A DNA stretch of 64,000 nt, taken from contig RXIG01000024.1 of the NCBI GenBank assembly GCA_004212155.1, forward strand, positions 7,853-71,852, written 5' to 3'. The notes under the pieces are model-generated. The model was not told where the DNA came from, ran no database searches, and saw only the letters and a program-made list of their open reading frames with translations. This document shows, piece after piece, positions 14,706-55,581 of this stretch (its first letter is position 1; the number at the start of each line of letters is the position of its first letter). The position numbers were made by a program, and so were the translations under genes. This stretch comes from an archaeon (GTDB lineage Archaea; Methanobacteriota_B; Thermococci; Methanofastidiosales; NM3).

Positions 14706-14713
14706 CACGTCGC

Positions 14714-35182: not shown

Positions 35183-35390
35183 CGCCCCTCCCCAAGGAAG
35201 ATTCCGTGTGCGATTCGCTTGATGGGAAAATCTTTTCAAAACTATTTTAATTTTCTAATTTTTTTTCATTCTTTCATAACGATAAAATAAATTTTTGAAC
35301 GATAAAAAAAAGAATAATATACTCCTAAAATCACGAAATAAAAAGATTTATATGTGTTATTTGCACATCACTTGTAAGGGGGGTGGTAGC

Positions 35391-39501: not shown

Positions 39502-40083
39502 CTAAGTGCCGTCCCCGATTTTTGATGCCAAAGCGACGATACGCTTGCCAAGCGCATACGCTTCTTCGATCGATTCCACATTCTCTGCAGCCTCGCCCAT
39601 CTCGTCCGCATAGACCATGAGCCCGAGGCCGGGTATGCCGCCGATACTGGTCAGCACCGCCTTGTTGGTAAGGAGAAATCCGCTGATAGAGGCGAGCGTG
39701 GGGAAGTGTCCCCACTTCCAGGCGACCGCCACGGCCGCGCCGACCTTTCCGTCAAACGTCTTTTCCTGATGCCAGAGCACGCGCTCGCGGTCGATGAGCG
39801 CCTTGAGCGGCGCCGCGATGTTGCCGAAGTAGACGGGCGAACCGATGACTATCCCGTCCGCGTCCATCATCTTGTCGAAAATGAGCTCGGCATCATCATC
39901 GTAGGTGCACTCCTTGTGCTCGGCGCAGTACTCGCATGCCTTGCATGGATGCACCGTCTTGTTGGCCATTGGGAGGAACTCTGTCGAGGCCCCCGATTCC
40001 TTTGCCGACTTCAAGACCTCCTTGATGATGAAGTCGGTGTTTCCGCCAGATCTGGGACTTGCGGATATGCCAAGTATATGCAT
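39502..40083 (-). CDS. Iron-sulfur flavoprotein (Isf) / NADPH-dependent FMN reductase family
   Basis: ILGISASPRSGGNT flavodoxin-like start. Compact cysteine motif CKACEYCAEHKEC (Cx2Cx2Cx5C). Confidence 0.8.
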   Translation of the reverse strand: MHILGISASPRSGGNTDFIIKEVLKSAKESGASTEFLPMANKTVHPCKACEYCAEHKECTYDDDAELIFDKMMDADGIVIGSPVYFGNIAAPLKALIDRERVLWHQEKTFDGKVGAAVAVAWKWGHFPTLASISGFLLTNKAVLTSIGGIPGLGLMVYADEMGEAAENVESIEEAYALGKRIVALASKIGDGT

Positions 40084-41280: not shown

Positions 41281-42417
41281 ATGGACCTCATCCTCGATAT
41301 TGCCATACTGCTGCTGGCAGCAAAGGTCGGCGGAGAACTGACCGAGTATGCTGGATATCCTTCCATCATAGGCGAGCTCGCCGGCGGCATCATCGTTGGC
41401 ACGTCGGTGCTCGGCCTCATAGGTGATACGAGCGCGCTTGAGCGCTTTGCTGACATCGGCATCCTGCTGCTCATGTTCCTGGCAGGCGCAGAGACGAATC
41501 TGCAGGAGCTCACGAAGTCGGCAGGCAGCTCAGTTGCCGTGGCGATATCAGGAGTCGTGTTCCCGTTCATGCTCGGGTATCTTGCTGCCGTCGCGTTCGG
41601 ATACGGGGCATCGGAGGGCATGTTCCTCGGCGCGGCCCTGACGGCGACTTCGGTGAGCATCACTGTGCGCGCCCTGTTTGACATCGAAAAGCTCAATACA
41701 AGTAAGGGCATGACCATCCTTGGTGCAGCGATCATCGACGACGTCATCGGCGTCATCATCTTCACACTTGTAGTCGGACTGGCTGTGCAGGGTGAGCTCT
41801 CGGCGCTCCGCATCATCGAGGTGATAGGGGTAATCATTGCGTTCTTCCTGCTCTCGCACTTCGTGGTGCGCAGAGCCATGCGCCGCCTCTTCAAATATTC
41901 TCGCATGCTCAGGACCGAGGAGGGTACGGAAACGTTCGTCATCGTCTTCGTGCTCCTCTTCGCCCTCGTCGCAGAGGAGGCCTACATCGCAGGCATCACG
42001 GGCAGCTTCCTGGCAGGCATCATGCTAGCGCAGACGCATGACCGAAACACGATCATAGAAAAGACGAAGACGGTCGGCTATGCGTTTTTCATCCCTCTCT
42101 TCTTCGCCTTCGTGGGGAGCCGCGTCGACATCTGGCAAATTCTTGATGTCGGGGCGATAAGTGTGGTGGTGATCGTCTTTGCCATCGTAGGCAAGATGGG
42201 TGGCAGTGCCATCGCATGCAAGGCGATCGGCATGAAGATCAGAGACGGACTCGAGATAGGCATCGGCATGACCCCCCGCATGGAAGTGGCCATCGTCATC
42301 GCGAACGCGGCACTGACAGAGGGCGTCTTCGCGGTGCCACTCTACACGTCAGTCGTGATGATGAGCTTTGCGACGACGCTCATCACGCCGCCGCTCCTCA
42401 AGAAGTTCTTTACGTGA
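41281..42417 (+). CDS. Cation:proton antiporter (CPA2/Kef-NapA type)
   Basis: About 11 TM. GGELTEYAGYPSIIGELAGGII and DDVIGVI motifs. Confidence 0.8.
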   Translation: MDLILDIAILLLAAKVGGELTEYAGYPSIIGELAGGIIVGTSVLGLIGDTSALERFADIGILLLMFLAGAETNLQELTKSAGSSVAVAISGVVFPFMLGYLAAVAFGYGASEGMFLGAALTATSVSITVRALFDIEKLNTSKGMTILGAAIIDDVIGVIIFTLVVGLAVQGELSALRIIEVIGVIIAFFLLSHFVVRRAMRRLFKYSRMLRTEEGTETFVIVFVLLFALVAEEAYIAGITGSFLAGIMLAQTHDRNTIIEKTKTVGYAFFIPLFFAFVGSRVDIWQILDVGAISVVVIVFAIVGKMGGSAIACKAIGMKIRDGLEIGIGMTPRMEVAIVIANAALTEGVFAVPLYTSVVMMSFATTLITPPLLKKFFT

Positions 42418-44110
42418 ACTCCTTCGGGGTGAGCGTGAGCGTGCGAATGTTCTGCACAGGTGTGCCCACGGTGATATCGCATCCCGAGGCAAGAATGAGT
42501 CCCTTGCCGCCCATGTCCTCGATGCATCGGCGCGCCTCGGTGCGTACCTTGTCGGGGGACGACATGTAGAGCGTCTCGAGTGCCGATACGTTGCCGATGA
42601 TAGCGAAGCGGTCGCCAAGCATCCGTCTCGCGAACGAGAGGTCGACATGCGAGTCGATGCTCACGGCATCGGTGTTGAGGCCGCGGAACAGGTCAAGCCT
42701 GTCGCTGATGTTTCCGCAGATGTGAAGCGCCGTCTTGTCGTCGCTTCGGTTGAAGTGGCCAAAGACGTCGTTGATGAACGGAAGCGAGAACTCCTCGAAG
42801 ACCTCGGCGGATATGAGGTCGCCCGATGCGACGGGGTCGCAGAAGAGATATGCCTCGATGCCCGCCTCCTGCATGAGACGGGTGAATGAAAGCGTGAGCT
42901 CGGTGCAGTACTTGAGCAGTTTGAACGCAAACGGCCTGTTCACGAAGAGGTCCATGAGGAGATTCTGGGTGCCGCGAAGCTCGGCGGCCAGGGTAAACGG
43001 CATCGCGAGCGTAGCATACGTGAAGCGAGATCCATCATTGAGCTCGTTTATCGCAGTTGCCGCCTCGATGGCCGAACTGATGCGCTCATGCGACTGCAGC
43101 TCGGGCATCTCCAGCGAATCGATGTCCTCCGCGCGCTTGAGCAAAGGCTCGATGGTCACCGGATTACCCTTCGCCTCAATACGCACGTGCCCCCCTGCCG
43201 CTTCGATGGGGGCGAGCCAGTCCCATGCGCACTCGTAGGCGTCAAAGCCGCAGTTACGGACCTCCTTGTACTGGGTCTTTGCGGCTAGTTCTGGATGTGC
43301 GATCGACTGACCCACCGTCATGCCCGCGTGGTGCAGCGCCCAGTAGCCCTGAAAGGGGGGGGCGGTGGACACCATGTCAGGCACATCGCCACGAAGCGTC
43401 ATCATGACGCGCTGGTGGGGCGAGACCTTGCGCTTCTTTCCCTTCAGTGTGGCAGCTCGCTGCTTGACGAGCTCGTGCGAGAGTTCCACGGTCTTGACCG
43501 CGTCGTCGGCGTAGCCGTCTGCGCCGATGGTGCGGGCGAACTCCTCGGTGACGGGGGCCCCGCCCACCATGACCTTGACGTCGTCGCGGCGCTCGAGAAA
43601 GAGGTTGACAACATCGATCATGTTCTCCATGCTCGTCGTCATGAGCGCCGAGACGCCGACGATGTCCGCATCGACCTCGATGGCCTTTTCAAGGAACGTC
43701 TCGGCAGGCGTGTCGACGCCGAGATCATAGACCTTGAACCCACCCAGCTCAAGCAGCATCTTGACCATGTTCTTTCCGATATCGTGGAAATCGCCCGTGG
43801 TCACGCCGAGCACGACGGTGCCCTCGTTGTGGGAGTTGTTGTTCTGCGAAAGATAAGAATGAAGGATATCAATGGCCGCGTTTGCGGCGCGAGAAGAGAG
43901 CAGGACCTCGGGGATGAAGATCTTTCGCTGTTCGAACAGCTCGCCGAGCACCTGCATTGTGTCATGACAGGCAAACGAGAGGGCCTTGCGCACGTCGACG
44001 TCATGCTCGATGACCTGTCGGGCGGCATCTACCGCACCGTCAACATCGCCGTGGATGATGCTCCTGCACAGAGCACCCAGGATCTCGTCGTCCCGTTTCA
44101 TCATGGTCAC
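42410..44110 (-). CDS. Fusion protein: corrinoid-binding module + URO-D-family (MtaA-like) methyltransferase domain
   Basis: N-terminal B12 cap helix domain and GDFHDIGKN...SALMTT...GGAP. C-terminal about 350 aa with PPFQGYWAL, LHICGN and ASGCDI. Architecture as in MtsD/F/H-type fusions. Confidence 0.8.
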   Translation of the reverse strand: MTMMKRDDEILGALCRSIIHGDVDGAVDAARQVIEHDVDVRKALSFACHDTMQVLGELFEQRKIFIPEVLLSSRAANAAIDILHSYLSQNNNSHNEGTVVLGVTTGDFHDIGKNMVKMLLELGGFKVYDLGVDTPAETFLEKAIEVDADIVGVSALMTTSMENMIDVVNLFLERRDDVKVMVGGAPVTEEFARTIGADGYADDAVKTVELSHELVKQRAATLKGKKRKVSPHQRVMMTLRGDVPDMVSTAPPFQGYWALHHAGMTVGQSIAHPELAAKTQYKEVRNCGFDAYECAWDWLAPIEAAGGHVRIEAKGNPVTIEPLLKRAEDIDSLEMPELQSHERISSAIEAATAINELNDGSRFTYATLAMPFTLAAELRGTQNLLMDLFVNRPFAFKLLKYCTELTLSFTRLMQEAGIEAYLFCDPVASGDLISAEVFEEFSLPFINDVFGHFNRSDDKTALHICGNISDRLDLFRGLNTDAVSIDSHVDLSFARRMLGDRFAIIGNVSALETLYMSSPDKVRTEARRCIEDMGGKGLILASGCDITVGTPVQNIRTLTLTPKEFT

Positions 44111-44158
44111 AGCTTCTTGTTTATACCAACTCCTTAAAAAGGTAATTCAGGATAGAGC

Positions 44159-45172
44159 TCAAAGTCCGTGCGCATACGACGTGTAGGCGCGTATGTTGTC
44201 AAGCGGCGTCTTGGGCGATATGCCGCAGCCCGGGGCGAGGATGTCCGCGCCCTTCTCGATGCATGAGCGCGCCTCGTCGACCACGCGCCGAGCGTCGCCG
44301 AAGAGGAGCGTGTCGATGGGATTGATGTTTCCCACGAGCGCAGCGGAGCGGACCTTCTCGCGCGCAACAGCCATGTCAACGAGGTGGTCAATCGATATGC
44401 CCTTGGCACCGATGCGCTGCATATCATCAAGTATCTCAGTGGTGTCCCCGCAGATGTGGAGCACCACCGGCACGTCGAGCGAATCGATGACGGCATGCAG
44501 CTGTGGTCCTGCAAGCGAGGCGAACATCTCGGGTCCGATGAGCTCGGTTGTCGCCGAAGGATCGATGAGCGTGATGACATCTGCCCCGTTGGCCACGAGG
44601 TGGCGGGCGTATGCGACGCACACGTCGGTGGTGAACGCGAGCACGCGTTCGAGGAAGTCGTAATCATCGAACGAGTCGATGAGGAGCGTCTCGATGCCGC
44701 GTATCTGCCCGGCCAGTGTGAACGGCCCGACCACTCCGCCGATGACGGGAAGCCCATGCCGGTCCGCGCGTTCCGAGAGCAAGCCAAGCGCCGTTGCCAC
44801 CACGGGCATGCGCCCTGTCTTGGAGGGATCGGGAACCGAGAGCGAGTCGAGCGCATCCTTGTCAGCGAGCACGGGGCGTTCCACCGAAGGCTGCGACGTG
44901 TCTGCGCCGCTGTGGATCGAGCATCCCAGCGCCTCCGCCTCCACGGTGAGGCAAAACGGAACGCGCACGCTCTCGATGTCGGCACACTTCCATGCTGCGT
45001 AGGCGAGGTCCGCCATCTTCTTCGCATCGTAGTGCGCATCGGGCCAGCGAGCACCGCTTCGCTCCATCATCTCGAGCGTCGCCGTCTGGAGCGGACATGC
45101 GCACGATGGGCGGTCTGCCGGTTCGCCGTCGAGTATGGCAAGCAGCCGTTCGCGGGAGGAGAGCTCGGGCAT
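44159..45172 (-). CDS. Methylcobamide:CoM methyltransferase-like (MtaA/MtbA family, URO-D fold)
   Basis: SSRERLLAILDGEPADRP, ARWPDAHYDAKKMADLA, Zn-ligand context LHICGDT and APGCGI. ATG 45172 lies 4 nt after the upstream stop. Confidence 0.75.
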   Translation of the reverse strand: MPELSSRERLLAILDGEPADRPSCACPLQTATLEMMERSGARWPDAHYDAKKMADLAYAAWKCADIESVRVPFCLTVEAEALGCSIHSGADTSQPSVERPVLADKDALDSLSVPDPSKTGRMPVVATALGLLSERADRHGLPVIGGVVGPFTLAGQIRGIETLLIDSFDDYDFLERVLAFTTDVCVAYARHLVANGADVITLIDPSATTELIGPEMFASLAGPQLHAVIDSLDVPVVLHICGDTTEILDDMQRIGAKGISIDHLVDMAVAREKVRSAALVGNINPIDTLLFGDARRVVDEARSCIEKGADILAPGCGISPKTPLDNIRAYTSYAHGL

Positions 45173-45176
45173 GGTA

Positions 45177-46205
45177 TCACTTCCGCGCGACGACCGTCTT
45201 GAGCGCCTCGACGTTATCCATCGGACTTCCCGGTGCGATATCGCATCCAGCACCCAGCACGAACGCCTTGCCGTCGGTCTTTTGTATGCACGCCTGCGCC
45301 TCGCGCACGACCTGTTCGGCCGTCCCGTTAAAGAGCGTCTCTGCGGGATTCACGTTGCCAAGCAGCGTGGGCGAGTCTCCAAGCGTCTCCTTCGCATAGG
45401 CGAGGTCGACGAGGAAGTCGAGCGAGAAGACGTCAATGTCGAGCTCGCCGATGGTATCGAGCCTGTCGGACGTGTTGCCGCAGATGTGAAGGAGCACGTA
45501 GGCGTCGGCATCGCGAATGGCCTTGATGGGTGCCTTGAGATAGTGTTTCGAGAACGTCTCGAAGTCCTCTTTTGATATAAGGTCCGCCGAAGCGGTGGGA
45601 TCGCAAAGAATGACGCCGTCAACACCCCAGCTCGTGAGATATTCGCTGTAGCGCACGACGACGTCCTCTGCAAACGAGAGCATGTCGTGGACGAAGTCAG
45701 GCTCGTCGTACATGTCAAGCATGAGATTCTCGACGCCGCGAAGCTCGCCTACGAGCGTGAACGGCGATACGAGCGTCGTGTAAAGGAACTTGTCGCTTCC
45801 CAGCTTGTTCCTGATGATGCTTGTCGTGTGCATTGCGCTCTGAAGGCGGTAGTCCTTCTCAGGATCGGGGACCTCGAGTGAGTCGAGAACTGAGGGTGAG
45901 GTAACGACATGAGTTGCCGTGCTTGGGTTCCCGACATCCGGCATGTCCACCGTGCAGCCCACAGCCTCCACAGGGGCGAGCCAGTCCCACATCGTCTCGA
46001 AGCCGTCAAAGGCGCAGCGCTCCACCGCTTTGAGCTGGGCCGAAGCGGCAAGCTGCGGCTTGTCGATCGACGTCCTGACGGGGACGCCGGCCTGCTGCAG
46101 CGCCCAGTAGCCCTGAAAGGGGGGCCCGATGGGCACCCTGTCGACGGGCTCGCCGTTGATGGCAGCCACGAATCTGTCGCGAGATGAGTGCGACACCATT
46201 GTCAT
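45177..46205 (-). CDS. URO-D-family methyltransferase, paralogue of the fusion C-domain (candidate substrate:corrinoid MT1)
   Basis: PPFQGYWAL, WDWLAPVEA, LHICGN and GAGCDI. About 50% identical by eye to residues ~230-566 of the 42410-44110 product. Confidence 0.7.
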   Translation of the reverse strand: MTMVSHSSRDRFVAAINGEPVDRVPIGPPFQGYWALQQAGVPVRTSIDKPQLAASAQLKAVERCAFDGFETMWDWLAPVEAVGCTVDMPDVGNPSTATHVVTSPSVLDSLEVPDPEKDYRLQSAMHTTSIIRNKLGSDKFLYTTLVSPFTLVGELRGVENLMLDMYDEPDFVHDMLSFAEDVVVRYSEYLTSWGVDGVILCDPTASADLISKEDFETFSKHYLKAPIKAIRDADAYVLLHICGNTSDRLDTIGELDIDVFSLDFLVDLAYAKETLGDSPTLLGNVNPAETLFNGTAEQVVREAQACIQKTDGKAFVLGAGCDIAPGSPMDNVEALKTVVARK

Positions 46206-46837
46206 GCCCCCACCAACTTACCGATGAGCTTGACCGCCTTTGCCGCGTCGTCGGCGTAACCGTCTGCACCGATCGTGTCAGCATAGCTCTGTGAGACGGC
46301 GCCACCACCAATGATGATCTTGATGTTGCCATCGACCTCCCTTACGGCGGCGATGACGTCGGGCATGCCCACCATGCTTGTCGTCATGAGCGATGACATG
46401 CCCACGACCTGTGGAGATGAGTCCTTGACCGAGGCGACAAAGGCATCCTTTGTGACGCTCTTGCCAAGGTCGACGACGGTGTAGCCCGCTGCCTCGCACA
46501 GCAGCTTGACGAGGTTCTTCCCGATGTCGTGGATGTCGCCCTCGACGACGCCCAGCACCACGGTGCCCGATGACTTCGAATCGACCTCGAGGTGCGGCTT
46601 GAGGATTTCCACTGCCATGTTCATCGCCCGCGCTGAGCGAAGGATCTGTGGCACGAACACCTTGCGCTGCTCGTAGAGGTCGCTTACGATCTGCATGCCC
46701 TTGTTCAGGCCCTGCTGTATGCACTCGTACGCATCGAGTTCCATGGATATCGCATCATGTGCCGTGGCGGTGGAAAGCTTCTCATCACCGCTAACGACCG
46801 CATCGGTCAGTTTTTTGTAAACATCTTCCTTTTTCAT
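46202..46837 (-). CDS. Corrinoid (B12-binding) protein
   Basis: Cap domain plus GDIHDIGKN, SSLMTTS and GGGAV. ATGA overlaps at both ends (46202-46205, 46834-46837). Confidence 0.85.
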   Translation of the reverse strand: MKKEDVYKKLTDAVVSGDEKLSTATAHDAISMELDAYECIQQGLNKGMQIVSDLYEQRKVFVPQILRSARAMNMAVEILKPHLEVDSKSSGTVVLGVVEGDIHDIGKNLVKLLCEAAGYTVVDLGKSVTKDAFVASVKDSSPQVVGMSSLMTTSMVGMPDVIAAVREVDGNIKIIIGGGAVSQSYADTIGADGYADDAAKAVKLIGKLVGA

Positions 46838-48729
46838 TTTATCACTTCCTTCATCGTTGCAAGGTCGAAATGGTCCTCGTAGAGGGAGGGTTCGATCCCG
46901 ACGGATGCGAGCATCTCCCTGGTAGGATATCCGTCCCTCGTCCATCCCCTCATCCTGTAGCATTCCTGCATCATGTCGTCAAATGGCGGCGCCTTACCCA
47001 TGCGGGCGCCATCGGGTGCGGGCGTGAGGAGCTTCTTTGGAAGCACGTCGTATGCCGGCCCCTTCCCGTCGCGTATGTTGACGAGACGCTGGAAGTTATA
47101 GATGCGCTCGCCGCAGCGCGAGAGGTCTTCAAACGACCATCCCCAGCCGGTCATGGCATTGAGCGCGTCCAGATAGCGAGATATCGACGCCTCGCCCTCG
47201 ACGAACATGAACGCGCAGAGGACCGCCGATCCCATGATCGCGCCGAAGTTCTGATGGATGACGGCAAGTCGCGTCTTGTCCCCGACCTCGAAGAAGCGCG
47301 GTTTTTTTGTCACGCCGTACTCGGGGAGGAGGAATCCGCCGATCTCGGTCTCCTCGGGGCATCCTCGGTAATGGCATGCGCCGCGGGTCCCTGTCGCATA
47401 GTTTACCGAGAGGCTGTAGCACAGGCGCGGGTCGTGTCCGGGCACGTCGAGTCCCCGTACATGGACCGCATGCCCTTCCTTACCGAGGGTGGCCCCGAGC
47501 GTGGCGGCACCCTCGGCCATGATGCTCCCTATGCCTTCCCGTTTGCCTATGAGGTCGATGAGGTGGAGGACAATGGCAGGATCTCCCCAATCGATTCGCA
47601 GGTCCCCGATGACGTGAGGTGGAAACCACCCCTTCTCGTAGGCTTCCATGGCAAGGGCTATGGCCGAGCCCGCAGAGATGGTGTCCATCCCGTAGCGATT
47701 GCACAGATCATTAGCCTTCGCTACGGCGCGCACCTCGCGGACGAGGCAGTTCGCCCCTAGCATTGCCAGAGTCTCGTACTCGGGTCCTGGTCCATCGACC
47801 CCATAGGACGGGTGCTCAAAGGAGACATGACGGTGACAGGCAAGCGGGCAGCTGAGACAGGCCTTGGGCTTGACGTTGAGCGCCTCGTTGTAATGGGGCG
47901 TCTCCATCTCCTTGCCCTCCTCCGTCCAGCTGCTGCCGTCCCAGTTCTTCTTTGGAGTGTTGTCAAGGGCATTATAGGTGGCAAAGCCACCTGGTGTGCC
48001 CCAGGCGCGAAGCTCCTTGCCCCGGTCGCTTCGCACCATCGTCCTGGTGATATCCTTCCTGATGTCGTCAAGTGCCCCTCCATCGAAATACGAAGGTGTC
48101 GCGCTCCCCAAGAGCGCGATGCCCTTGAACTTCTTGGAGCCCAACACAGCGCCGATGCCCGACCGGCCAGCGTAGCTGTGCTTGTCGACGACGACGCAGG
48201 CGAAGCGGACGAGCCGCTCCCCTGCCGGCCCTATGGCAGCGACACTCGCCTTCTTGTTCGTGTCGCTTTTCATGGCGTCAATGGTATCGAACGTCTCGAG
48301 CCCCCATAAGGCCGAGGCGTCCCTGAGCTCGACCGCGCCGTCCTCTATCCATAGATAGACGGGTGATGGCGAGCGTCCCTCGACGACGATGGCGTCGAGT
48401 CCGCATCCGCGAAGGGACGGCCCGAAGCTGGCACCCGCCGCCGAATCGCCAAAGGTGTGGGTCATAGGAGACTTGGAGACTAGCGACCATTTGGCGGATC
48501 CGGGGATGCGCGTGCCCTGGAACGGTCCTGTGGCGAAGACGACCTTGTTTGCAGGTTGGAATGGGTCGACGTGGGAGGGAACTTCATCGAGAAGGATCTT
48601 TGCGCCCATTCCCGCTCCGCCGAGAAACACCTTGTAGAACCGTTCGTCGGTGTGCTCTATATGGGTCCGTCCCTTCGTGAGGTCGACCCTCAACACCTTG
48701 TTATGGTAACCAGACGACAACAGGATCAC
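46834..48729 (-). CDS. Aldehyde:ferredoxin oxidoreductase (AOR) family tungsto/molybdopterin enzyme
   Basis: GYHNKVLRVDLTKG, LGGAGMGAKILLDE and FATGPFQGT N-domain pattern. About 630 aa. Cys ligand region CLSCPLAC. GTG start. Confidence 0.8.
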   Translation of the reverse strand: MILLSSGYHNKVLRVDLTKGRTHIEHTDERFYKVFLGGAGMGAKILLDEVPSHVDPFQPANKVVFATGPFQGTRIPGSAKWSLVSKSPMTHTFGDSAAGASFGPSLRGCGLDAIVVEGRSPSPVYLWIEDGAVELRDASALWGLETFDTIDAMKSDTNKKASVAAIGPAGERLVRFACVVVDKHSYAGRSGIGAVLGSKKFKGIALLGSATPSYFDGGALDDIRKDITRTMVRSDRGKELRAWGTPGGFATYNALDNTPKKNWDGSSWTEEGKEMETPHYNEALNVKPKACLSCPLACHRHVSFEHPSYGVDGPGPEYETLAMLGANCLVREVRAVAKANDLCNRYGMDTISAGSAIALAMEAYEKGWFPPHVIGDLRIDWGDPAIVLHLIDLIGKREGIGSIMAEGAATLGATLGKEGHAVHVRGLDVPGHDPRLCYSLSVNYATGTRGACHYRGCPEETEIGGFLLPEYGVTKKPRFFEVGDKTRLAVIHQNFGAIMGSAVLCAFMFVEGEASISRYLDALNAMTGWGWSFEDLSRCGERIYNFQRLVNIRDGKGPAYDVLPKKLLTPAPDGARMGKAPPFDDMMQECYRMRGWTRDGYPTREMLASVGIEPSLYEDHFDLATMKEVIK

Positions 48730-48748
48730 CTGTAAAAAAAAGAAGGGC

Positions 48749-50026
48749 CTAGAGGGCCCTGTCCAACAGTTGTACCAGGTCTAGCGTCGGTATGTTCTTG
48801 TTCGCCGCGCGCGCACCGTCGTTGAGGTTGGTGTGGCAGAAGGGGCAGATTGACACGATCGCCTCGGCGTTCTTCTCCTCTGCCTCGTCCACGCGTCGCT
48901 TTGACGTGTTCACCGCGAAGTCCGGATAGTCGGTCTTCACGCCGCCACCGGCGCCGCAGCACAGCGAATCGCGGCGTATGCGTTCGAACTCGACGAAGTC
49001 GATGCCCGGTATCGCGCTCAGGAGCTCGCGGGGCTGGTCGTAGAGCGAATGACTCTGGTCCTCATCGCCCGTTCCTTCCTTGTAGCGGTGCAGATGGCGT
49101 CCCGTGTGGCACGGGTCGTGATAGGTAACGCGCATGTTGACCTCCTTTTCCGGCCTCCACTCGCCCGCCTTGTACTTCTCGTGCAGGAAGTCGACGAGGT
49201 GCATGATGCGTATGCCGTCGATGTAGTCCTCGTATCCTTCCACATCTGGATAGTCCTTGTTGAAGCAGCGGAAGCAGCCTGCGCACGCAGTGACGATCGT
49301 GTTCACGCCGTGGTTTTCATGCATGTCCTTGAACGTCTCAAGCGATTTCTTGGCAACGCGCTGGAACTCGTTTTCAACACCCATCCTGCGCACGGTCGAA
49401 CCGCAGCAGACCTCCTTGTCGTAGAGATAGCCGAAGTCGATGCCGAGCTTGTTGAGGACATTGACGGTGGAGACGGCGATGCAGCGGTTGTTGGAGTTGT
49501 AGGCAGGCGTGCAGCCGGCATAGTAGAGGACCTCTGCGTCCTCCTTGTTGAGGTTTTTGACCGGCGTGTCCTTGAACTCCTTGGTCCACCTCGTTCGCAT
49601 CTTGCGCGAGCCGGTGTAGGGGTTGTCGTTGTTTCGCATCGACTTGATGAGCACCTCTCCGGACTCGGGCCCAAGGCCCTTGTCCTGCAGCTCGAATCGG
49701 ATGTGCTGCAGGATCTCGGCGCCATAGGCGCGTATGGGCTTCCAGGCGTCCTCGTCGTTGATGTAGCACTGCTCGGCGCAGGCACCGCATAATGTACAGT
49801 AGGAGAACATCTCTGCCACGTCGTCGTCCCACTCGAGCTCGCCGTTGCGCAGGGCCCGATAGACCTGCATCCTCCCCTGGAGCGTATAGTCAAGAAACGA
49901 CCTGTCAAGGTACGATGGGCACACGATCTCCCTGTTGCCCTCGTGCTGTGTCCTGCAGGTGCCGCATCCTATGCAGCGCTCGGGCAGATTGTTCTCCTTT
50001 AGGATCTTTTCTATGTCGAGTTTCAT
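48749..50026 (-). CDS. Fe-S oxidoreductase with two [4Fe-4S] motifs and two CCG domains (HdrD/GlcF/GlpC-like)
   Basis: CIGCGTCRTQ and CTLCGACAEQC. CCG motifs VCCGST and LCCGAGGG with PCH and CPFC. Confidence 0.8.
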   Translation of the reverse strand: MKLDIEKILKENNLPERCIGCGTCRTQHEGNREIVCPSYLDRSFLDYTLQGRMQVYRALRNGELEWDDDVAEMFSYCTLCGACAEQCYINDEDAWKPIRAYGAEILQHIRFELQDKGLGPESGEVLIKSMRNNDNPYTGSRKMRTRWTKEFKDTPVKNLNKEDAEVLYYAGCTPAYNSNNRCIAVSTVNVLNKLGIDFGYLYDKEVCCGSTVRRMGVENEFQRVAKKSLETFKDMHENHGVNTIVTACAGCFRCFNKDYPDVEGYEDYIDGIRIMHLVDFLHEKYKAGEWRPEKEVNMRVTYHDPCHTGRHLHRYKEGTGDEDQSHSLYDQPRELLSAIPGIDFVEFERIRRDSLCCGAGGGVKTDYPDFAVNTSKRRVDEAEEKNAEAIVSICPFCHTNLNDGARAANKNIPTLDLVQLLDRAL

Positions 50027-51484
50027 TTAGATGCCCCCTATCTGGCCCCGATTCATGATGCGGTACGGATCGATGAGGTCCTTGATCTGTTTGATGAACT
50101 CCACCGTGTTCGGGTCCGCATGCGACATGTTCACCCTGCTGTTTGAGTATGAGGGCTTGTAGACGACCGCCCCGAGCTCGACCTCCTTTTCGGCGATGGC
50201 CTTGAGCAGCGCGCGGTCGCGCTCCTTCTCCTCCTCCGATGCGTCCTTGTGCTGGAAGACGTTGAAGCGAAGGATCGTCTCGTGGCCGTTGTCCATCACG
50301 CGATTGTACTGCATGATCGGATGCTCTGGCTCGACGTAACCAAGCTTCTCGTAGACCTTCTCGACAGCACGGTAGATCTCGGCCTGCTTGAACGGGGGAG
50401 CGTAGCAGCCGGCCCACTCACCCGTGCCGCCCCTGTTGCCGTCCATGTCGTTTGAGAGCTGCATGGGCAGGTCGTGGAAGTACTGCATCTGATTGCCTGG
50501 AGGAAGCTTCGGGAGGCCCTCCTCCTCAGGCTCTATCTCGATGCCCTTGTCCTCCTTGCATATCTTGTAGAGCTCCTCGATCTTGCCATCCATGATCTTC
50601 TCGTTGGCCGCCTGGAGCACCACCCAGCTCTCGAGCTCTGGCTCTCCCTTTTCGCGGCTGAACGGGAGCTTGATGCCCGCCTCGCAGCGCCCCCACGCCC
50701 AGTTGTTGGACGCGATGTCGACGGCGATCTGCTGCTTTGCGATGTTCATCTGATTGAGGTAGCCGTGCTCGACCGTGTCTGCGTTGACGTAGAACGCCTG
50801 TTGCTCGGCAGGTTGCTTGTAGATCTTAACGGATGCCTTGGTGACGATGCCGGTCGTTCCGGCCCATCCTATGAAGAGGCCAGCCAGGTCGATGATGGGC
50901 GCCCTCGTGCCCCAATATGGCGAGATCATGTGGTTTCCCGTCTTGATCAGCTCGCCGTTTGGCAGCACGACCTCCATGCCGGTGATGTAGAAGCTGCCGT
51001 CGCCGTGGGCAAGGCTGACATCCATCATGCCGCAAAGCAGATACCCTGTCACGACGCCGCTTGACGGCGGAGAATAGGTATATGCACCGATGTAGCCCGG
51101 TGCGCGCTTCATCATCTCGCGCTTGAAGTCGGCCCACGTGAGGCCTCCATCGACAACGGCATAAAGACCATCGGTGTTGATCTCCTCGACCTTGTTCATG
51201 CGTCGCAAGTCGAGGATGATGCCTCCATGGTGGGCATTGCACATGCCCCCAGTCGTAAGATTGCACACCCATGGAATGACGTTTACCTTGTTCTTCCATG
51301 CGATGCGCATGATGGCCTGGACCTCCTCGGTGGAGCCGGGCATGAGGACGGCGTCGGGATGCCCGTTCGGTTCGACGCTCGTCCAGTCATTTGAATAAGC
51401 GTATCGGGTGGTCTTCTTTTCCGATATATACTTCTGGCCGACCACGCCTTCTAGCTCTTTGAATACATTTCTATCTAAAGTCAT
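50027..51484 (-). CDS. FAD-linked oxidase (GlcD / D-lactate dehydrogenase family)
   Basis: FAD_binding_4-like N-half (PDAVLMPGSTEEVQAI...VIPWV..TTGGM) and FAD-oxidase C-half. GGAGGTGG SD before ATG 51484. Confidence 0.75.
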   Translation of the reverse strand: MTLDRNVFKELEGVVGQKYISEKKTTRYAYSNDWTSVEPNGHPDAVLMPGSTEEVQAIMRIAWKNKVNVIPWVCNLTTGGMCNAHHGGIILDLRRMNKVEEINTDGLYAVVDGGLTWADFKREMMKRAPGYIGAYTYSPPSSGVVTGYLLCGMMDVSLAHGDGSFYITGMEVVLPNGELIKTGNHMISPYWGTRAPIIDLAGLFIGWAGTTGIVTKASVKIYKQPAEQQAFYVNADTVEHGYLNQMNIAKQQIAVDIASNNWAWGRCEAGIKLPFSREKGEPELESWVVLQAANEKIMDGKIEELYKICKEDKGIEIEPEEEGLPKLPPGNQMQYFHDLPMQLSNDMDGNRGGTGEWAGCYAPPFKQAEIYRAVEKVYEKLGYVEPEHPIMQYNRVMDNGHETILRFNVFQHKDASEEEKERDRALLKAIAEKEVELGAVVYKPSYSNSRVNMSHADPNTVEFIKQIKDLIDPYRIMNRGQIGGI

Positions 51485-51527
51485 GATAGTTCCACCTCCC
51501 ACATGGGGAAAAAGAAAAAAAGAGGGG

Positions 51528-52877
51528 TTAGTCCTCGACCACCCCTGTAGGTACGTCAATAACGTACTGGTCCGCGTACCTGCTGCGTTCCCAGCGAAGG
51601 AAGAGCCAAACGACAAATCCGATCGCGAAGTAGGCAAAGAACATGTACCACAGCGTACTGTCGAAGTACTTGAACGTGTAGTACGTCATCACTAGGCCGC
51701 ATCCCACTGCGAGCACACCCGTTGCGCTTCCGCCTGGCACCTTCCATGGACGGCGCCACTTGGGGAATACCCTGCGCATCTGAAGGAACGAAAGACTTGA
51801 GATGGTATATGTTATACCAACGCCGATCGCCATCAGGGTAAAGAGATACTCCAGCCACTGCGTGCCTGAAATGGCAATGAAAAACAGTGTGACGGCAAGT
51901 ATCGACCAGTTGGCAGTCGATGGTACGTGCTGCTTGTTGAGGTTCCCGAACTGACGCGGCAGGATGCGGGAACGTCCCATGCTGTAGAGCAGCCTGGAGC
52001 CTGCAAGCCAGAATCCGTTGAGGCAGGTCGCAAGCGCGCAGAAGTTGGCCAATGCTATCGCATACTGGGCCCATGTACCGTAAAGCGCGCCCGCGATTGT
52101 GGCGCTTACCATCGGCGTTTCGTTGACGATGGTGTCGAACGGAAGCATCGCTGCGTTCACGATGCAAAGACCGCCGTAGAACGCGATACAGAAGATGATG
52201 GAGCCAACGATAAGCCTCCAGTGCTTCTCGGTCGGGTATTTAGACTCCTCGGCGAACTGCGGGATGATCTCGAATCCGAAGAACATCGTCACCATGAGGG
52301 CCGTAGCAGTAAAGAATCCGTCCCTTCCTGTTTGGAAGAACGGGCTCCAGTTAGCCGTATCGAACGTCGGGTGGGACACGAAGAGGACCACGATTGTCAC
52401 AGCAATAACAACGAGTACCAAGAACATCAAGAACTGTGCTGTAGCGCTGATGATGAGCTCACGAGAGTTCATTATGGCAAAGCCCACGGCAAGAATAGCT
52501 GCGATAATCATCATGGAGGTCAACGGCATGCCGGGCCACCACAGATATTCAACGATCCACATGAGTGCCATGAGCTGGAACGAAAGCACTGTCGTGTACG
52601 AGAGCAAAAGTGCCCATGAGGTCCAGAACGAAGCCTCTTTGCCAAACGCGTTTTGTATAAAGACAAAAGGCCCACCGACGAATGGGAGCATGGCGGTCAT
52701 TTCACCATACACCAATCCTATGGGGATACACATCAATCCGACGACCAAGAACGAGAGAGCTATAGACGCGCCGGTAAGTGAGATCCACCATTGCATCATC
52801 ACTAACCAGGGTCCTATGACGGCAGCTGTCGCCATGGCGAACAGATACCAGCTCCCAAGTGACTTTTGAAGTCGCAT
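51528..52877 (-). CDS. APC-superfamily (amino acid/polyamine/organocation) permease
   Basis: 12 TM. N-terminal LGSWYLFAMATAAVIGPW and GEMTAMLPFVGGPF motifs. Confidence 0.8.
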   Translation of the reverse strand: MRLQKSLGSWYLFAMATAAVIGPWLVMMQWWISLTGASIALSFLVVGLMCIPIGLVYGEMTAMLPFVGGPFVFIQNAFGKEASFWTSWALLLSYTTVLSFQLMALMWIVEYLWWPGMPLTSMMIIAAILAVGFAIMNSRELIISATAQFLMFLVLVVIAVTIVVLFVSHPTFDTANWSPFFQTGRDGFFTATALMVTMFFGFEIIPQFAEESKYPTEKHWRLIVGSIIFCIAFYGGLCIVNAAMLPFDTIVNETPMVSATIAGALYGTWAQYAIALANFCALATCLNGFWLAGSRLLYSMGRSRILPRQFGNLNKQHVPSTANWSILAVTLFFIAISGTQWLEYLFTLMAIGVGITYTISSLSFLQMRRVFPKWRRPWKVPGGSATGVLAVGCGLVMTYYTFKYFDSTLWYMFFAYFAIGFVVWLFLRWERSRYADQYVIDVPTGVVED

Positions 52878-53187
52878 TGTGTCTCCGCCGCTTCCAGTGT
52901 CACTGATAGAATCACCTAGAAAAGGTAAAAAAAAGGCGCTTTATATTGTTTTTCGAACCTATTGCAGAAGGTTGCAACATTTAATCAATATATGAAAATA
53001 ATTGTGTTTTTTGTTGCAAAAATAAAATATAATAATTCTATTGAAACTTTCAAGGACATGAATTTTACGTTATTTTTTCCTCCGGTAACACATATGCATA
53101 TATAAGCTTATCGGTTTGAAAAGAATCACTTGGCGGAAGTGGAACGTATGCGAGCCGCGTCCTGTGTTGGGTCGAGACGAGAAAAGA

Positions 53188-53194
53188 TTTAAAT
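53188..53194 (+). promoter_or_regulatory. TATA box of SRP RNA gene
   Basis: TTTAAAT lies about 20-25 nt upstream of the predicted 5' helix. Confidence 0.45.
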
Positions 53195-53209
53195 GCATGC
53201 CTGCGAGAG

Positions 53210-53545
53210 GTGATGCGACTAGGTCGGGGAGGTAGGCGTGCCCTGTTACCAGAAACCGTCTAGATGCTGGGACCGAAGCCCTCGGGGCGTCGACTGAACG
53301 TGGCAAAGGTGCTGCCTACGCCGATGAAGTCCTGTCCTGCTTGATTGGTGGGGCGCGAGGCCCTTTTGGAGGAAAGGGTTAACGCGCCTTGTCTCCCGAA
53401 CCCCGCCAGGTCCGGAAGGAAGCAGCGGTAGGGAGGACATTCAATGCTTGCGGGATTGCAGGATGGAGAACGGGGCAGTCCTCTCTTTGCCACCGGATGT
53501 CGGCCACCCGCGGGCGCGTCGTGACCATCACAAACGTTTTTTAAC
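53210..53545 (+). ncRNA. Signal recognition particle 7S RNA
   Basis: Helix-8 signature CCCGCCAGGTCCGGAAGGAAGCAGCGGTAGG at 53402-53432. Long-range pairing GTGGCAAAG/CTTTGCCAC. 5' GTGATG..CGAC pairs with 3' GTCG..CATCAC. No credible ORF. Ends are approximate. Confidence 0.8.
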
Positions 53546-53547
53546 GT

Positions 53548-53553
53548 GCCTGA
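53548..53553 (+). terminator. Oligo-T terminator after SRP RNA
   Basis: TTTTTT immediately after the 3' terminal helix. Confidence 0.5.
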
Positions 53554-53565
53554 CCATTCGAGACC

Positions 53566-54492
53566 ATGCGTGCCGCCATCGAGAACAACTTCTCACTTGT
53601 CATCGCCCTCGCGTTCGTCGTTGGCATGGTGGCGCCCGGGTTCGCACGCGTGTTCAACCCCTATATACTCTACATACTCATGGGGGTGATGTATCTCACC
53701 ATCCTCAAGATCGACCTGCGCGAGCTCAAGGCACATGCCGCCAACGCCGGTTACATGGGATACCTCACGTTCATCATCCTCATCGCGACGCCTGTTGCAG
53801 TCTTTGCTGTCACGCGCGCAGTCTACCCGGAGATCGCCGCAGCCGCGCTCATCGTGGGAAGCCTTCCCGCCGCGATAGCCTCGACGTCGTTTACCGACCT
53901 TCTCAAAGGGAATGTCAACATCGCGCTGCTCATGACGACGATAACGTCGCTTTTGGCACCGTTCACGATGCCGCTGCTCATCAGGCTGCTCATCGGCGTC
54001 GAGACCGATGCGAGTTTCACCGAAATGCTCCTGATGCTCGCCCAGGCCATATTCATCCCGTTTGCGCTCGCCGTCCTTACCAAGTGGGCGGCGCCGGGCC
54101 TCATACGACGCACGAAACCCTTCTACGCATCCCTCAACATCCTGCTGCTCTTCTTCGTCATCATCGGCCCCGTCGGCCACAACGCCGAATTCATCTACGA
54201 CAACGTCCGAAAGGCGATAACTATCGCGCTCTTTTTCATAGGCATCTCCGTCCTTCAGCACATCATCGGTTGGTACGCATCGTACTGGCGCCCCATCGAG
54301 GACAGGGTGGCATCGGCCACCGTCATCGCATACAACAACATCACGCTTGGCATCGTCTTCACATCGCAGTTCTTCTCGCCGCTCATCGTGCTCTCCGTCG
54401 TCCTCTACGAGGTCGCCTGGGACCTGATGCCAATGCCGTTCCAGTTCGTCGTGCGCCGCGCCAGGGGGTGGCATGCATCGCCCAAGGCATGA
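53566..54492 (+). CDS. Bile acid:sodium symporter (BASS/SBF-like) family transporter
   Basis: About 9-10 TM. GSLPAAIASTSFTDLLKGNVNIAL motif region. Confidence 0.7.
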   Translation: MRAAIENNFSLVIALAFVVGMVAPGFARVFNPYILYILMGVMYLTILKIDLRELKAHAANAGYMGYLTFIILIATPVAVFAVTRAVYPEIAAAALIVGSLPAAIASTSFTDLLKGNVNIALLMTTITSLLAPFTMPLLIRLLIGVETDASFTEMLLMLAQAIFIPFALAVLTKWAAPGLIRRTKPFYASLNILLLFFVIIGPVGHNAEFIYDNVRKAITIALFFIGISVLQHIIGWYASYWRPIEDRVASATVIAYNNITLGIVFTSQFFSPLIVLSVVLYEVAWDLMPMPFQFVVRRARGWHASPKA

Positions 54493-54633
54493 CCCGGTAT
54501 ACGTGATGGCGGGGCGAGAATGGCATGGTTGAGATAAAAAGTTGCCCCACACATCGAAAAATACATATAATGTGGCACGCATTCTGACTAAAATCGTCTT
54601 CGTGCCCGAGCCGCGAGGACGGGACGTGATCAC

Positions 54634-55581
54634 ATGATGAGACGGGAAGACATCGTGTCACAGTGCGGCGACCTGCCCTACATGACACCTTTTGAAAAGA
54701 TATTTGCACTCATAGACGAAACTGGCAATGCCATCGAGCTCCACGAATACCATGCGCGAGGTATGTGCGACGGAGGGGCGGCATGGGACTGCTACCACTT
54801 TCCGCGCACTTCGCGCCTCATACGCGCCGGCATCAACCAGGGCGCGCACAACACGTTCATACTCTCAACAGGCGCGGAGAAGCTCGACCTCATACCAGGT
54901 ATTTGCGGCGCGGGCATCGAGCGAGCAGAGATCAGCAGCGACACCGTCTCCATCACCTATGCCGGACTCGCGGGCGCGGGGGTCTCGGTCACCATGGGGC
55001 GCGGCATGGCGTCAAACATCTCAGGTGTCGAGATCCACTCCATGGGGGGCGGCGCGAAACTGGGCCGCGCGACGATGCACCTGCCCGCCTACCGTAAGCT
55101 CGTCTTCGGCGTCGACGACACCGACGTTCCCGGAGAGGGCGCCACCTGGTCGATGATGAACGAGCTCGGTTACCTCGTCGAGCAAAAGGGCCTCGCGCAC
55201 TACCTCAATCACACGATCACGCAGCTCTACCCCCAGGCCCCGAAGAAGACGACCAACTGCGTCACCGTCGCCATCAATCTCGCCTGCCCGCTGGGCGAGG
55301 AGCGGCGGCTCAAGGACCTGCTGCTCAAGGAACTGGCCGAGCGCACCTACAGCGACGATACCTCCGCCGTCTTCTGGGAGAAGGTCGACATCCCGGAAGG
55401 ATTGAGGCGATACACGCAAAACGCGAAGAATCGCATCGTGGAGATTCCCGAGGCGGAGGACACCGCAAAGGAAAACGGCGTCGAGCTCGTCGAGGTGACC
55501 GGACCGATGGGAAAGATCGGCGCCGTGGCCTCGATCGGCCTCCACCGCGATAGGGAACGGGCTGTCATGCCGTATTATTGA
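54634..55581 (+). CDS. Uncharacterised conserved protein, paralogue A (possibly 'methanogenesis marker 11'-type; not verifiable here)
   Basis: 315 aa. HEYHARG.C.GGAAW..YHFPRTS, IPGICGAG and FGVDDTDVPGEGATW. About 78% identical to the 56463-57410 product. Confidence 0.55.
   Translation: MMRREDIVSQCGDLPYMTPFEKIFALIDETGNAIELHEYHARGMCDGGAAWDCYHFPRTSRLIRAGINQGAHNTFILSTGAEKLDLIPGICGAGIERAEISSDTVSITYAGLAGAGVSVTMGRGMASNISGVEIHSMGGGAKLGRATMHLPAYRKLVFGVDDTDVPGEGATWSMMNELGYLVEQKGLAHYLNHTITQLYPQAPKKTTNCVTVAINLACPLGEERRLKDLLLKELAERTYSDDTSAVFWEKVDIPEGLRRYTQNAKNRIVEIPEAEDTAKENGVELVEVTGPMGKIGAVASIGLHRDRERAVMPYY
55450..55550 (+). repeat. 101-nt tract identical to 57279-57379 (3' ends of paralogues)
   Basis: Direct comparison of both sequences. 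The rest of the genes carries many synonymous differences. Confidence 0.9.

Follow-up and report, generated by a model that had tools for sequence, protein, structure and literature searches.

An archaeal cluster in which genes for corrinoid-dependent methyl transfer stand together with those for an aldehyde:ferredoxin oxidoreductase (AOR), a flavoprotein, an iron-sulfur protein and a permease raises the question of which compound such a set of enzymes would serve, and whether all of them serve the same one. The stretch analysed here, referred to as the window, covers 64,000 nt of contig RXIG01000024.1 (assembly GCA_004212155.1, positions 7,853 to 71,852) from a member of the Methanofastidiosales, and the eight genes in question span its positions 42410-52877. 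Our answer, held with about even confidence, is that the cluster encodes a methyl-sulfur:coenzyme M (CoM) methyltransferase system of the Mts/Mtp kind joined to a flavoprotein/iron-sulfur dehydrogenase and a tungsten AOR. On this view, methyl-reducing methanogens would use it as a conserved module to import and break down an organic compound that carries methyl groups on sulfur. Methyl-reducing methanogens, among them the Methanofastidiosia and Methanomethylicia, occur widely in sediments, digesters and oil reservoirs, and their real substrates are poorly known. Cultured Methanomethylophilus and Methanosuratincola carry mtsA-like genes or are related to carriers, yet use neither dimethyl sulfide (DMS) nor methanethiol (PMC10673518; PMC12244365).

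The eight genes all lie on the minus strand, and both the open reading frame (ORF) listing and a direct reading of the junctions show them to be free of internal stops. Successive intergenic distances from gene 1 to gene 8 are 43, 0, 19, -4, -4, 4 and 48 nt, with the TAA/ATG abutment, two ATGA overlaps and 4-nt gap exactly where a preliminary description of the locus had placed them, and GGAGGTGG lies 7 nt ahead of the gene 2 ATG at 51484. The domain composition given in that description was likewise recovered in every call by Pfam and NCBIfam, the Pfam families being AA_permease_2, FAD_binding_4, Fer4_8 with two CCG domains, AFOR_N with AFOR_C, B12-binding_2 with B12-binding, and URO-D three times; of the families expected from it, the only one that Pfam failed to detect was FAD-oxidase_C (PF02913) in gene 2. 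Neither resource finds an MtaB, MtmB, MtbB or MttB domain among the eight genes, which agrees with the earlier statement that a methanol- or methylamine-type substrate methyltransferase (MT1) is absent from the cluster, and there is no in-frame TAG, as no gene of the eight has an in-frame stop. With no MttB, MtgB, MtbB or MtmB-type gene and no in-frame TAG, N-methyl substrates were ruled out.

Genes for transport, redox chemistry and methyl transfer have stayed linked in members of two archaeal phyla. The full eight-gene order is kept in six further relatives, metagenome-assembled genomes (MAGs) labelled Methanofastidiosia or Methanomicrobia, whose loci (numbered here with the prefix L) are L012/L013, L002, L003, L004/L005/L020 and L016, at 54-99% protein identity and with locus GC contents of 40-57%. 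L012/L013 represent a close relative, whose proteins are 85-99% identical to those of the window and which shares its downstream flank; L002 (also L006) comes from a MAG labelled ‘Methanomicrobia archaeon CSMAG_1224’ and L003 from one labelled ‘Ca. Methanofastidiosia archaeon’. In the distant relatives L002, L003 and L004, identity to the window is 77-82% for the permease, 79-80% for the flavoprotein, 77-79% for the CCG protein, 59-67% for the AOR, 65-68% for the corrinoid protein, 59-64% for MT1, 56-61% for the CoM-side methyltransferase (MT2) and 54-56% for the corrinoid::methyltransferase fusion; the first three genes are slightly lower in L016, at 79%, 76% and 74%. Coupling-type junctions are found in every lineage at genes 2-3 and genes 4-7 only, and the ATG of gene 3 abuts the gene 2 stop (TAAATG) in every relative with this eight-gene order.

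A more distant variant is assigned to Ca. Methanomethylicia/Methanomethylicaceae by the names of cluster members. About a dozen such loci, whose flanking genes differ, combine a divergent APC permease with genes for an AOR, a MoaD-like protein, a flavoprotein (44-49% identical to that of gene 2), a CCG protein and one URO-D methyltransferase. The last three of these are adjacent in all 12 loci with enough flank, the AOR gene lies upstream in ten of ten, and in every locus examined the distance from the CCG gene to the MT1 gene behind it is 22-60 nt, with corrinoid and MT2 genes both lacking. In Asgard archaea, relatives of the flavoprotein (35-38% identity) retain the CCG partner only. Because the order recurs over two phyla with unrelated flanks, the linkage is neither chance nor a matter of shared flanks, and the uptake, redox and methyl-transfer genes form the single conserved unit that had been claimed. 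The preliminary description had suggested the Methanomassiliicoccales and other archaea as places to look for this synteny; the order is conserved in relatives labelled Methanofastidiosia, Methanomicrobia and Methanomethylicia, and the hosts are not shown to be Methanomassiliicoccales. A scan of GTDB species representatives with two peptide patterns from the flavoprotein alignment returned one locus, on the same contig as L002, and the cluster is therefore rare among these representatives or was missed by the two patterns.

Methyl-transfer and redox enzymes

Gene 5 (46202-46837, minus strand like the other seven; 211 aa) encodes a methyltransferase-cognate corrinoid protein with B12-binding_2 and B12-binding domains and the motif GDIHDIGKN. 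Its start overlaps the AOR stop as ATGA, and it reaches 191 bits on TIGR02370, just under the 215-bit cut-off. Gene 7 (44159-45172; 337 aa) exceeds the cut-offs of NF004889 (371 bits against 244) and TIGR01463 (305 against 235), misses the MtaA_Meth equivalog (335 vs 400 bits), matches Methanosarcina mazei MtaA (4ay7) at 232 bits in an alignment that brings the zinc ligands into register, and clusters with MtaA in a neighbour-joining tree, which was built without bootstrap and with the M. mazei reference rebuilt from a PDB alignment. These matches identify it, at the level of sequence, as an MtaA-type methylcobamide:CoM methyltransferase, the MT2 of the system.

Gene 6 (45177-46205; 342 aa), a methyltransferase of the MtaA/CmuA family with the URO-D fold (PF01208, 1.4e-70), falls under every MtaA and MtbA cut-off, scores 121 bits against MtaA itself and clusters in the tree with proteins from MAGs labelled Methanomassiliicoccales, Methanoplasma, Methanosarcinaceae and Deltaproteobacteria, not with MtaA. 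Related genes are annotated mtsAB in cultured Methanomassiliicoccales (PMC10673518). Gene 8 (42410-44110; 566 aa) is, by its Pfam domains, a fusion of a corrinoid-binding region (residues ~4-215, with GDFHDIGKN) and a URO-D domain (~230-558). Its N-terminal domain shares 41% identity with gene 5, its C-terminal domain (8C) 39.5% with gene 6 and 28% with gene 7, with genes 6 and 8C together spanning 28-35% identity to gene 7, and the protein is on this comparison a fused paralogue of the gene 5 and gene 6 pair. Like gene 6, 8C fails every MtaA/MtbA cut-off in NCBIfam; in the tree it forms its own clade, beside the Methanomethylicia methyltransferase. Among the best 120 matches to the fusion, the close full-length relatives fall into seven 90%-identity clusters, all from cluster-carrying MAGs, and no protein carries a Methanosarcina label.

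All cluster URO-D domains and their orthologues carry His-Cys-Cys (HxC...C) at the zinc-ligand positions of MtaA, which we take to be the HxC and GC positions of the M. mazei enzyme. This set of ligands is reported to mark S- and Se-methyltransferases of the UroD superfamily, in which O-demethylases replace one or both Cys (Kountz & Balskus, PMC10418091), and it is because of this signature that genes 6 and 8 are read as predicted substrate-side (MT1) S-methyltransferases, less likely acting on Se-methyl groups. The ‘O- or S-methyl’ substrate of the preliminary description is thereby narrowed toward sulfur. Identity between the bacterial MtaA-like protein CLJU_RS09375 and phenolic O-demethylases is only ~17% (PMC10418091), and the MtoB O-demethylases, of 47-48 kDa, form a separate cluster (PMC8630106). 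Methanosarcinaceae MAGs (L010 8001-10414 and L011 8001-9707) hold a stand-alone URO-D/corrinoid/URO-D trio with 49% identity to gene 6, 49% to gene 5 and 50% to gene 7, adjoined by a FilR1-type regulator gene; redox and permease genes are absent there, and the trio looks like the methyl-transfer module alone.

On the redox side, gene 4 (46834-48729; 631 aa) encodes a tungsten-type AOR with full-length AFOR_N (2.9e-74) and AFOR_C (2.3e-111) matches and a CxxCxxxC motif, CLSCPLAC. Its scores against solved structures are 397 bits for 9mqx, 383 for Pyrococcus furiosus AOR (1aor), 280 for FOR and 175 for BamB, so that the match to AORs stands well above that to FOR, WOR5 and BamB. By these features it belongs with the AORs sensu stricto and is closest to the broad-range members, with tungsten as the predicted metal. 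Gene 3 (48749-50026; 425 aa) encodes an HdrD/TfrB/GlpC-like protein with a 4Fe-4S dicluster domain (Fer4_8) and two CCG domains (CCG 2.6e-34 in two stretches). The top NCBIfam match is TfrB, at 173 bits vs a cut-off of 385 and aligned over residues 17-424, and the leading PDB matches are 9ojn, a 1042-aa iron-sulfur reductase (120 bits), and then HdrB. On this TfrB/HdrB similarity it is speculated here that the subunit couples to the heterodisulfide of CoM and coenzyme B (CoB), CoM-S-S-CoB. Gene 1 (51528-52877; 449 aa) encodes an APC-superfamily permease (AA_permease_2, 1.5e-35), for which all NCBIfam matches, TIGR00909 at their head, fall below cut-off; among solved structures it comes nearest to GkApcT and to CAT1, a transporter of cationic amino acids.

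Gene 2 (50027-51484; 485 aa) had been called GlcD-like, a name that holds at the superfamily level only. It encodes an FAD flavoprotein dehydrogenase in which FAD_binding_4 is the sole Pfam domain; TIGR00387 matches its N-terminal half at 76 bits against a cut-off of 568, and a sequence search of the PDB aligned the FAD domain alone. With an AlphaFold2 model (pLDDT 90), Foldseek gives TM-scores of 0.80 to mouse D-lactate dehydrogenase (D-LDH) and 0.83-0.85 to enzymes of the vanillyl-alcohol oxidase/p-cresol methylhydroxylase (VAO/PCMH) type, the highest being those of vanillyl-alcohol dehydrogenases, values at which the D-LDH and VAO/PCMH types are not separable. A profile of the flavoprotein family (40 sequences) scores 220 bits on PCMH, over the full length, 214 on bacterial vanillyl-alcohol oxidase and 171 on mouse D-LDH. 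The His/His/Glu metal site of GlcD and D-LDH has the motif GHxGDGNxH...GEHG; at what is presumably the GEHG position, assumed here rather than aligned, the gene 2 family has Tyr-Lys. With PF02913 undetected, TIGR00387 below its cut-off and D-LDH under PCMH/VAO in the profile, a GlcD or D-LDH orthologue was rejected.

A single HMMER alignment, from which the residue correspondence to PCMH was read off, places PCMH Tyr473-Arg474 opposite the conserved Tyr442-Lys443 of the gene 2 family. The first phenolate-binding residue of PCMH, Tyr95, sits in an insertion missing from the family, and the flavin-linked Tyr384 aligns with Met347, so that two of the four phenol-enzyme residues checked are absent and gene 2 has neither the full Tyr-Tyr-Arg phenolate triad nor the Tyr384-type covalent flavin link that define the PCMH/VAO enzymes. 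His401 is invariant in the family. Judged by these alignments the protein stands on a branch of its own within the VAO/PCMH superfamily, and the flavoprotein/CCG pair would represent a new and tightly conserved one, at ~80% identity over a 17-point GC spread. The methyltransferase-linked flavoprotein clades carry the acidic residues E402, D346 and E268, which relatives without a methyltransferase do not, a difference that is weakly suggestive of a cationic substrate.

The affinities of the flavoprotein bear on an alternative to sulfur, in which the cluster would serve a vanillyl- or syringyl-type compound, a 4-hydroxybenzyl amine or alcohol bearing methoxy groups. Its PCMH/VAO-like flavoprotein would make an aromatic aldehyde and the AOR an aromatic acid, with the URO-D enzymes acting as O-demethylases that feed CoM. 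The best profile scores (PCMH, then bacterial vanillyl-alcohol oxidase), the top TM-scores (vanillyl-alcohol dehydrogenases) and the alignment of the PCMH Tyr-Arg phenolate pair with a conserved Tyr-Lys are all in keeping with such chemistry, O-demethylase activity is known in the UroD superfamily (PMC8630106, PMC10418091), and a syringyl substrate would likewise give two methyl groups against four electrons. We nevertheless consider this route improbable, for every URO-D domain of the cluster has the His-Cys-Cys signature of S/Se enzymes in which O-demethylases replace Cys (PMC10418091). Genes 6 and 8C are moreover ~340 aa long and MtaA-related, unlike the 47-48 kDa MtoB with its separate clustering, and the APC permease is unlike the MFS transporters of the Mto operon, the known system for aromatic acids (PMC8630106). 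The MtrH-like MtoA, the MtoD activase and an MFS transporter are all missing, as are the first triad Tyr and the flavin-linked Tyr384 of PCMH itself.

A proposed route and the case against it

From the gene content, domain families, zinc ligands and conserved linkage seen directly, we tentatively propose the following route for an S-methylated substrate, in which the reaction directions, the electron acceptors and the substrate itself are the presumed ones. The APC permease, related to cationic amino-acid transporters, would import the substrate, and the PCMH/VAO-like flavoprotein would convert a side-chain amine or alcohol to an aldehyde with the release of two electrons. These would be carried off by the translationally coupled CCG subunit, the acceptor being perhaps CoM-S-S-CoB. 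The tungsten AOR would then take the aldehyde to the acid, reducing ferredoxin or the associated iron-sulfur flavoprotein. Two zinc His-Cys-Cys MT1 enzymes would move the S-methyl group or groups onto a Co(I) corrinoid, one using the separate corrinoid protein and the other the corrinoid domain to which it is fused, after which the MtaA-type enzyme would hand the methyl from the corrinoid to CoM for reduction to methane. Demethylation may precede or follow oxidation, and the four side-chain electrons would exactly balance two methyl groups. The scheme is the simplest that uses every gene and needs no missing enzyme; like the ‘self-contained route’ for one substrate of the preliminary description, it is something that we infer.

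As the substrate we would guess first at an alkylamine with an omega-(methylthio)- or (dimethylsulfonio)- group, or at a cationic amino acid related to one. Possible compounds, likewise guesses, are 3-methylthiopropylamine, the amine of dimethylsulfoniopropionate (DMSP-amine), S-methylmethionine and methionine derivatives, and in any particular one of them our confidence is much less than in the general mechanism. Methionine, 2-keto-4-methylthiobutyrate (KMTB), methional and methylmercaptopropionate (MMPA) were rejected as complete explanations, each requiring a deaminating or decarboxylating step, none of which is encoded in the cluster.

In its boldest form the proposal describes a new mode of methanogenesis, in which one S-methylated or dimethylsulfonium amine or amino-acid-like compound supplies both the methyl groups and the four electrons for methane. 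The dehydrogenase would reduce the heterodisulfide and the AOR would reduce ferredoxin, with two dedicated MT1 systems and MtaA delivering the methyl groups. We regard this extension as doubtful. Were it true, Methanofastidiosia-like archaea and Methanomethylicia, regarded as ‘obligately H2-dependent’ methyl-reducers, would need no H2 on this substrate. More generally, the cluster suggests that the true substrate of such organisms is an organic molecule of larger size with methylated sulfur, and that they have an internal source of electrons; this would change the modelling of methane from organosulfur pools (DMSP, methionine, S-methylmethionine).

Several observations weigh against the proposed S-methyl route. 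No enzyme of the cluster reaches an equivalog cut-off, the best match being at subfamily level, and a corrinoid reductive activase (RamA/RACE) is not found in the cluster. Those solved enzymes to which the flavoprotein is most nearly related have 4-alkylphenols as substrates, which is a better fit for a phenolic than for an aliphatic sulfur substrate. CCG proteins also serve GlpC, GlcF and fused flavoprotein/Fe-S enzymes of the YdiJ type, which have no known link to the heterodisulfide, the YdiJ-type NCBIfam match of gene 3 being itself a weak one. Asgard archaea are not known to use CoM or CoB, and heterodisulfide coupling is weakened because these archaea hold homologous flavoprotein/CCG pairs. 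The AORs of the two cluster variants are ~30% identical and may be non-orthologous. As there is no mcr gene in the 64-kb window, methanogenesis in the host is presumed from the taxon labels and from nearby genes of kinds that methanogens commonly carry, those of an Frh-type hydrogenase and one of the SepSecS/SepCysS family.

The permease contributes a further difficulty. In L012 and L013 (1214-2563 in both) the codon for Trp107 is changed from TGG to TGA in a protein otherwise 98.9% identical to that of the window, and far closer to it than the other cluster genes there (85-94%). The fusion protein of this relative is found on 21 contigs, of which L012 and L013 were read, and the TGA change is present in both. 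The nonsense codon, seen in one close relative, suggests a very recent inactivation, read-through of TGA or a recent exchange of the gene.

Transcription also argues for caution. A T-rich tract follows genes 1, 3 and 7 (junctions 1/2, 3/4 and 7/8) in all lineages compared, that is, the window, L012, L002, L003 and L004, and at the junction of genes 3 and 4 the window has a terminator-like element on the minus strand (48734-48760), AGGGCCCTCTAGGCCCT then TCTTTTTTTT, in which a GC hairpin is followed by T8. Because oligo-T is an archaeal termination signal, the transcript may be attenuated or broken up, the separate pieces being gene 1, genes 2-3, genes 4-7 and gene 8. The ‘coupled operon’ of the preliminary description thus stands as one conserved unit by synteny and is overstated as to coupling; co-transcription of the eight genes is a presumption.

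This segmentation would suit a reading in which the genes have two functions and are neighbours for regulation only, the permease, flavoprotein, CCG protein and AOR oxidising an ordinary amino acid, amine or hydroxy acid for electrons and the methyltransferases acting on methyl sulfides that are small and diffuse freely, for instance methanethiol, DMS or MMPA. It would also accommodate the stronger conservation of the first three genes (77-82%, against 54-68% for the methyltransferase genes), the homologues of the gene 6/5/7 trio that stand alone in a Methanosarcinaceae MAG and the Asgard flavoprotein/CCG pairs without a methyltransferase. We think it unlikely all the same, since in every Methanomethylicia locus examined the MT1 gene lies 22-60 nt after the CCG gene, whatever the flanks, and a single pathway of methyltransferase and dehydrogenase is favoured because this invariant adjacency is otherwise hard to explain. 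Very unlikely is a role in selenium or sulfur scavenging rather than energy, in which the methyltransferases would free selenide, a selenol or a thiol for assimilation from sources such as selenomethionine or methylselenides, as proposed for type 1 mlp clusters: His-Cys-Cys does not separate S from Se, and several MtaA-like proteins with a corrinoid protein are implicated in dimethylselenide use by Methanococcus (PMC10418091), but the dedicated MtaA-type CoM methyltransferase, the AOR and the flavoprotein dehydrogenase point to flux on the scale of energy metabolism, the cluster is without the Ram/RACE gene by which mlp clusters are defined, and the hosts are labelled methyl-reducing methanogens.

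Upstream region, flanking genes and the rest of the window

The spacer upstream of gene 1 (52878-53211; 334 nt, 36.5% GC) is bounded by the gene for the archaeal signal recognition particle (SRP) RNA (53212-53525, plus strand; Rfam RF01857, 208 bits), which is transcribed divergently from the cluster. A candidate promoter/operator on the minus strand (52939-53019) is marked by conserved upstream motifs, comprising a TGCAA-type repeat, TTGCAAC (53013-53019), the element GTTGCAAC-N4-TGCAATAGG (52958-52978), whose exact 21-mer occurs once in the window where 0.10 would be expected, and a TATA-like AATATAAAG (52939-52947) ~65 nt ahead of the permease ATG. TGCAA repeats, an A/T box and a downstream AGGTGA are common to the upstream regions of the window, L012, L002, L003 and L004 and are kept although genome GC varies from 40 to 57%; they may represent an operator with its promoter. 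At gathering thresholds, the Rfam matches within the window were limited to the SRP RNA and two tRNAs, and hence include no riboswitch or other known RNA in the 5' region.

Downstream, a gene for a CPA2-family cation:proton antiporter (41281-42417, plus strand; Na_H_Exchanger 1.6e-62, TIGR00932 174 bits) is convergent with gene 8 and overlaps it by 8 nt. L012 keeps this convergent arrangement, and in L002 and L003 a homologue with 34% identity lies on the same strand as the fusion gene, 22 nt after it; from adjacency, a functional link to the cluster may be supposed. Beyond it lies a gene for a 193-aa FMN protein resembling iron-sulfur flavoproteins (39502-40083, minus strand; FMN_red and Flavodoxin_2, with a CxxCxxCx5C motif). 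It is 62% and 65% identical to cluster-adjoining genes in L004 and L016, has a homologue of 34% identity between the AOR and corrinoid genes of L002 and L003, where it overlaps the AOR stop, and is found near the cluster in L012 as well. Among other neighbours, L004 has a class-III (omega-) aminotransferase gene converging on the cluster (13800-15110, minus strand) and an arginase/agmatinase-family gene (1265-2290, minus strand), and genes of the latter family lie 2-5 kb from the cluster in L004/L005 and in the Methanomethylicia loci L007 (18510-19562, minus strand) and L008 (14293-15345, minus strand). These may hint at the metabolism of amines or cationic amino acids, or be a coincidence.

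Elsewhere in the window, an operon resembling that of F420-reducing hydrogenase (35295-38620, plus strand) encodes a large subunit (NiFeSe_Hases), a HycI-type protease and a 529-aa ORF that combines an Oxidored_q6 small-subunit domain, ferredoxin domains and the N- and C-terminal domains of FrhB; this ORF looks like a gamma-beta fusion, and the same arrangement is found in L012/L013. A tRNA-Cys gene (GCA) lies beside genes for a SepSecS/SepCysS-family pyridoxal-phosphate enzyme (PF05889, 98 bits) and a ThiI-like protein (5276-7459, minus strand), an arrangement that typifies the tRNA-dependent route to cysteine in methanogens. A Cdc6/Orc1 gene (25038-26183, minus strand) adjoins a GC-poor intergenic stretch (region 25038-26500; 1-kb bin of 47.8% GC), a possible replication origin, beside which a repeat search gave short A/T-rich matches and no clear origin-recognition boxes.

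Upstream of the cluster, two long overlapping ORFs (53448-54633; 352 aa on the plus and 346 aa on the minus strand), neither with a Pfam match, are followed by two 315-aa TiaS_TCKD paralogues (54634-55581 and 56463-57410, plus strand) that flank a 247-aa ORF without a Pfam match, and then by a radical-SAM gene (57415-58491). A 515-aa protein (17451-18998, plus strand) has the unusual architecture of at least eight pentapeptide repeats and a C-terminal Ion_trans_2 domain with two transmembrane segments.

Comparison with known systems

Individual features of the cluster are found in a variety of characterised systems. The methyl-transfer half resembles the MMPA system of Methanosarcina acetivorans, in which MtpA is an MT2-family enzyme acting as a specific MT1 with MtpC as its corrinoid protein, a separate MT2 is required and the corrinoid::methyltransferase fusion MtsF co-purifies (10.1101/548461). 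On the reading proposed here, both share a corrinoid protein, an MT2-family MT1 for a thioether, a separate MT2, a corrinoid::methyltransferase fusion and a linked transporter. However, the MT2 and fusion genes stand here in the same cluster as MT1, with all four roles together, and the Mtp system is not known to include an AOR, a flavoprotein or a CCG protein. Fu and Metcalf are said to have described in 2015 an MFS protein, MtpP, as the Mtp transporter, whereas the transporter here belongs to the APC superfamily. MtsD, MtsF and MtsH resemble gene 8 in joining corrinoid-binding and MT2-family domains in one polypeptide. MtsA/MtsB of Methanosarcina barkeri likewise set an MtaA-family zinc enzyme beside a corrinoid protein for methyl sulfide substrates, but MtsA is bifunctional (MT1 and MT2), needs no separate MtaA and is without redox or transport partners.

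The Mto operon of Methermicoccus shengliensis is similarly self-contained and deals with a methylated organic molecule of larger size by means of its own transporters, corrinoid protein and substrate methyltransferases (PMC8630106). It differs in having the MtvB-like MtoB of 47-48 kDa, the MtrH-like MtoA, which passes methyl groups to tetrahydromethanopterin, the MtoD activase and MFS transporters, and in being without redox enzymes (PMC8630106); no MtrH-like or RACE gene occurs between 39.5 and 53.2 kb of the window, and both Cys ligands are kept. Type 1 mlp clusters, found mostly in Firmicutes and Methanococcales, also combine several MtaA-like His-Cys-Cys proteins with a corrinoid protein and have proposed methyl-S or methyl-Se substrates. 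They are always accompanied by Ram/RACE and lack AOR, flavoprotein, CCG and APC permease genes (PMC10418091), whereas no Ram/RACE gene lies in or beside the present cluster.

Among redox enzymes, the pairing of a flavoprotein with a subunit carrying a 4Fe-4S dicluster and two CCG domains recalls TfrAB and HdrD, although the flavoprotein here is of the VAO/PCMH superfamily, not the fumarate-reductase type, and the TfrB score is below cut-off. PCMH and VAO provide the best full-length profile match and share with gene 2 a Tyr and a basic residue at PCMH Tyr473-Arg474, yet gene 2 is without the first phenolate Tyr and the Tyr384-type link and has a CCG partner instead of a cytochrome c; in VAO the covalent flavin link is at His422. 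The preliminary description recognised no characterised operon of this composition, and our search of the full-text literature gave no description of an AOR-linked methyltransferase cluster either. On the reading proposed here, the cluster would be a methyl-sulfur:CoM methyltransferase system, dependent on corrinoid, to which a conserved extension for redox chemistry and transport, itself without precedent, has been joined.

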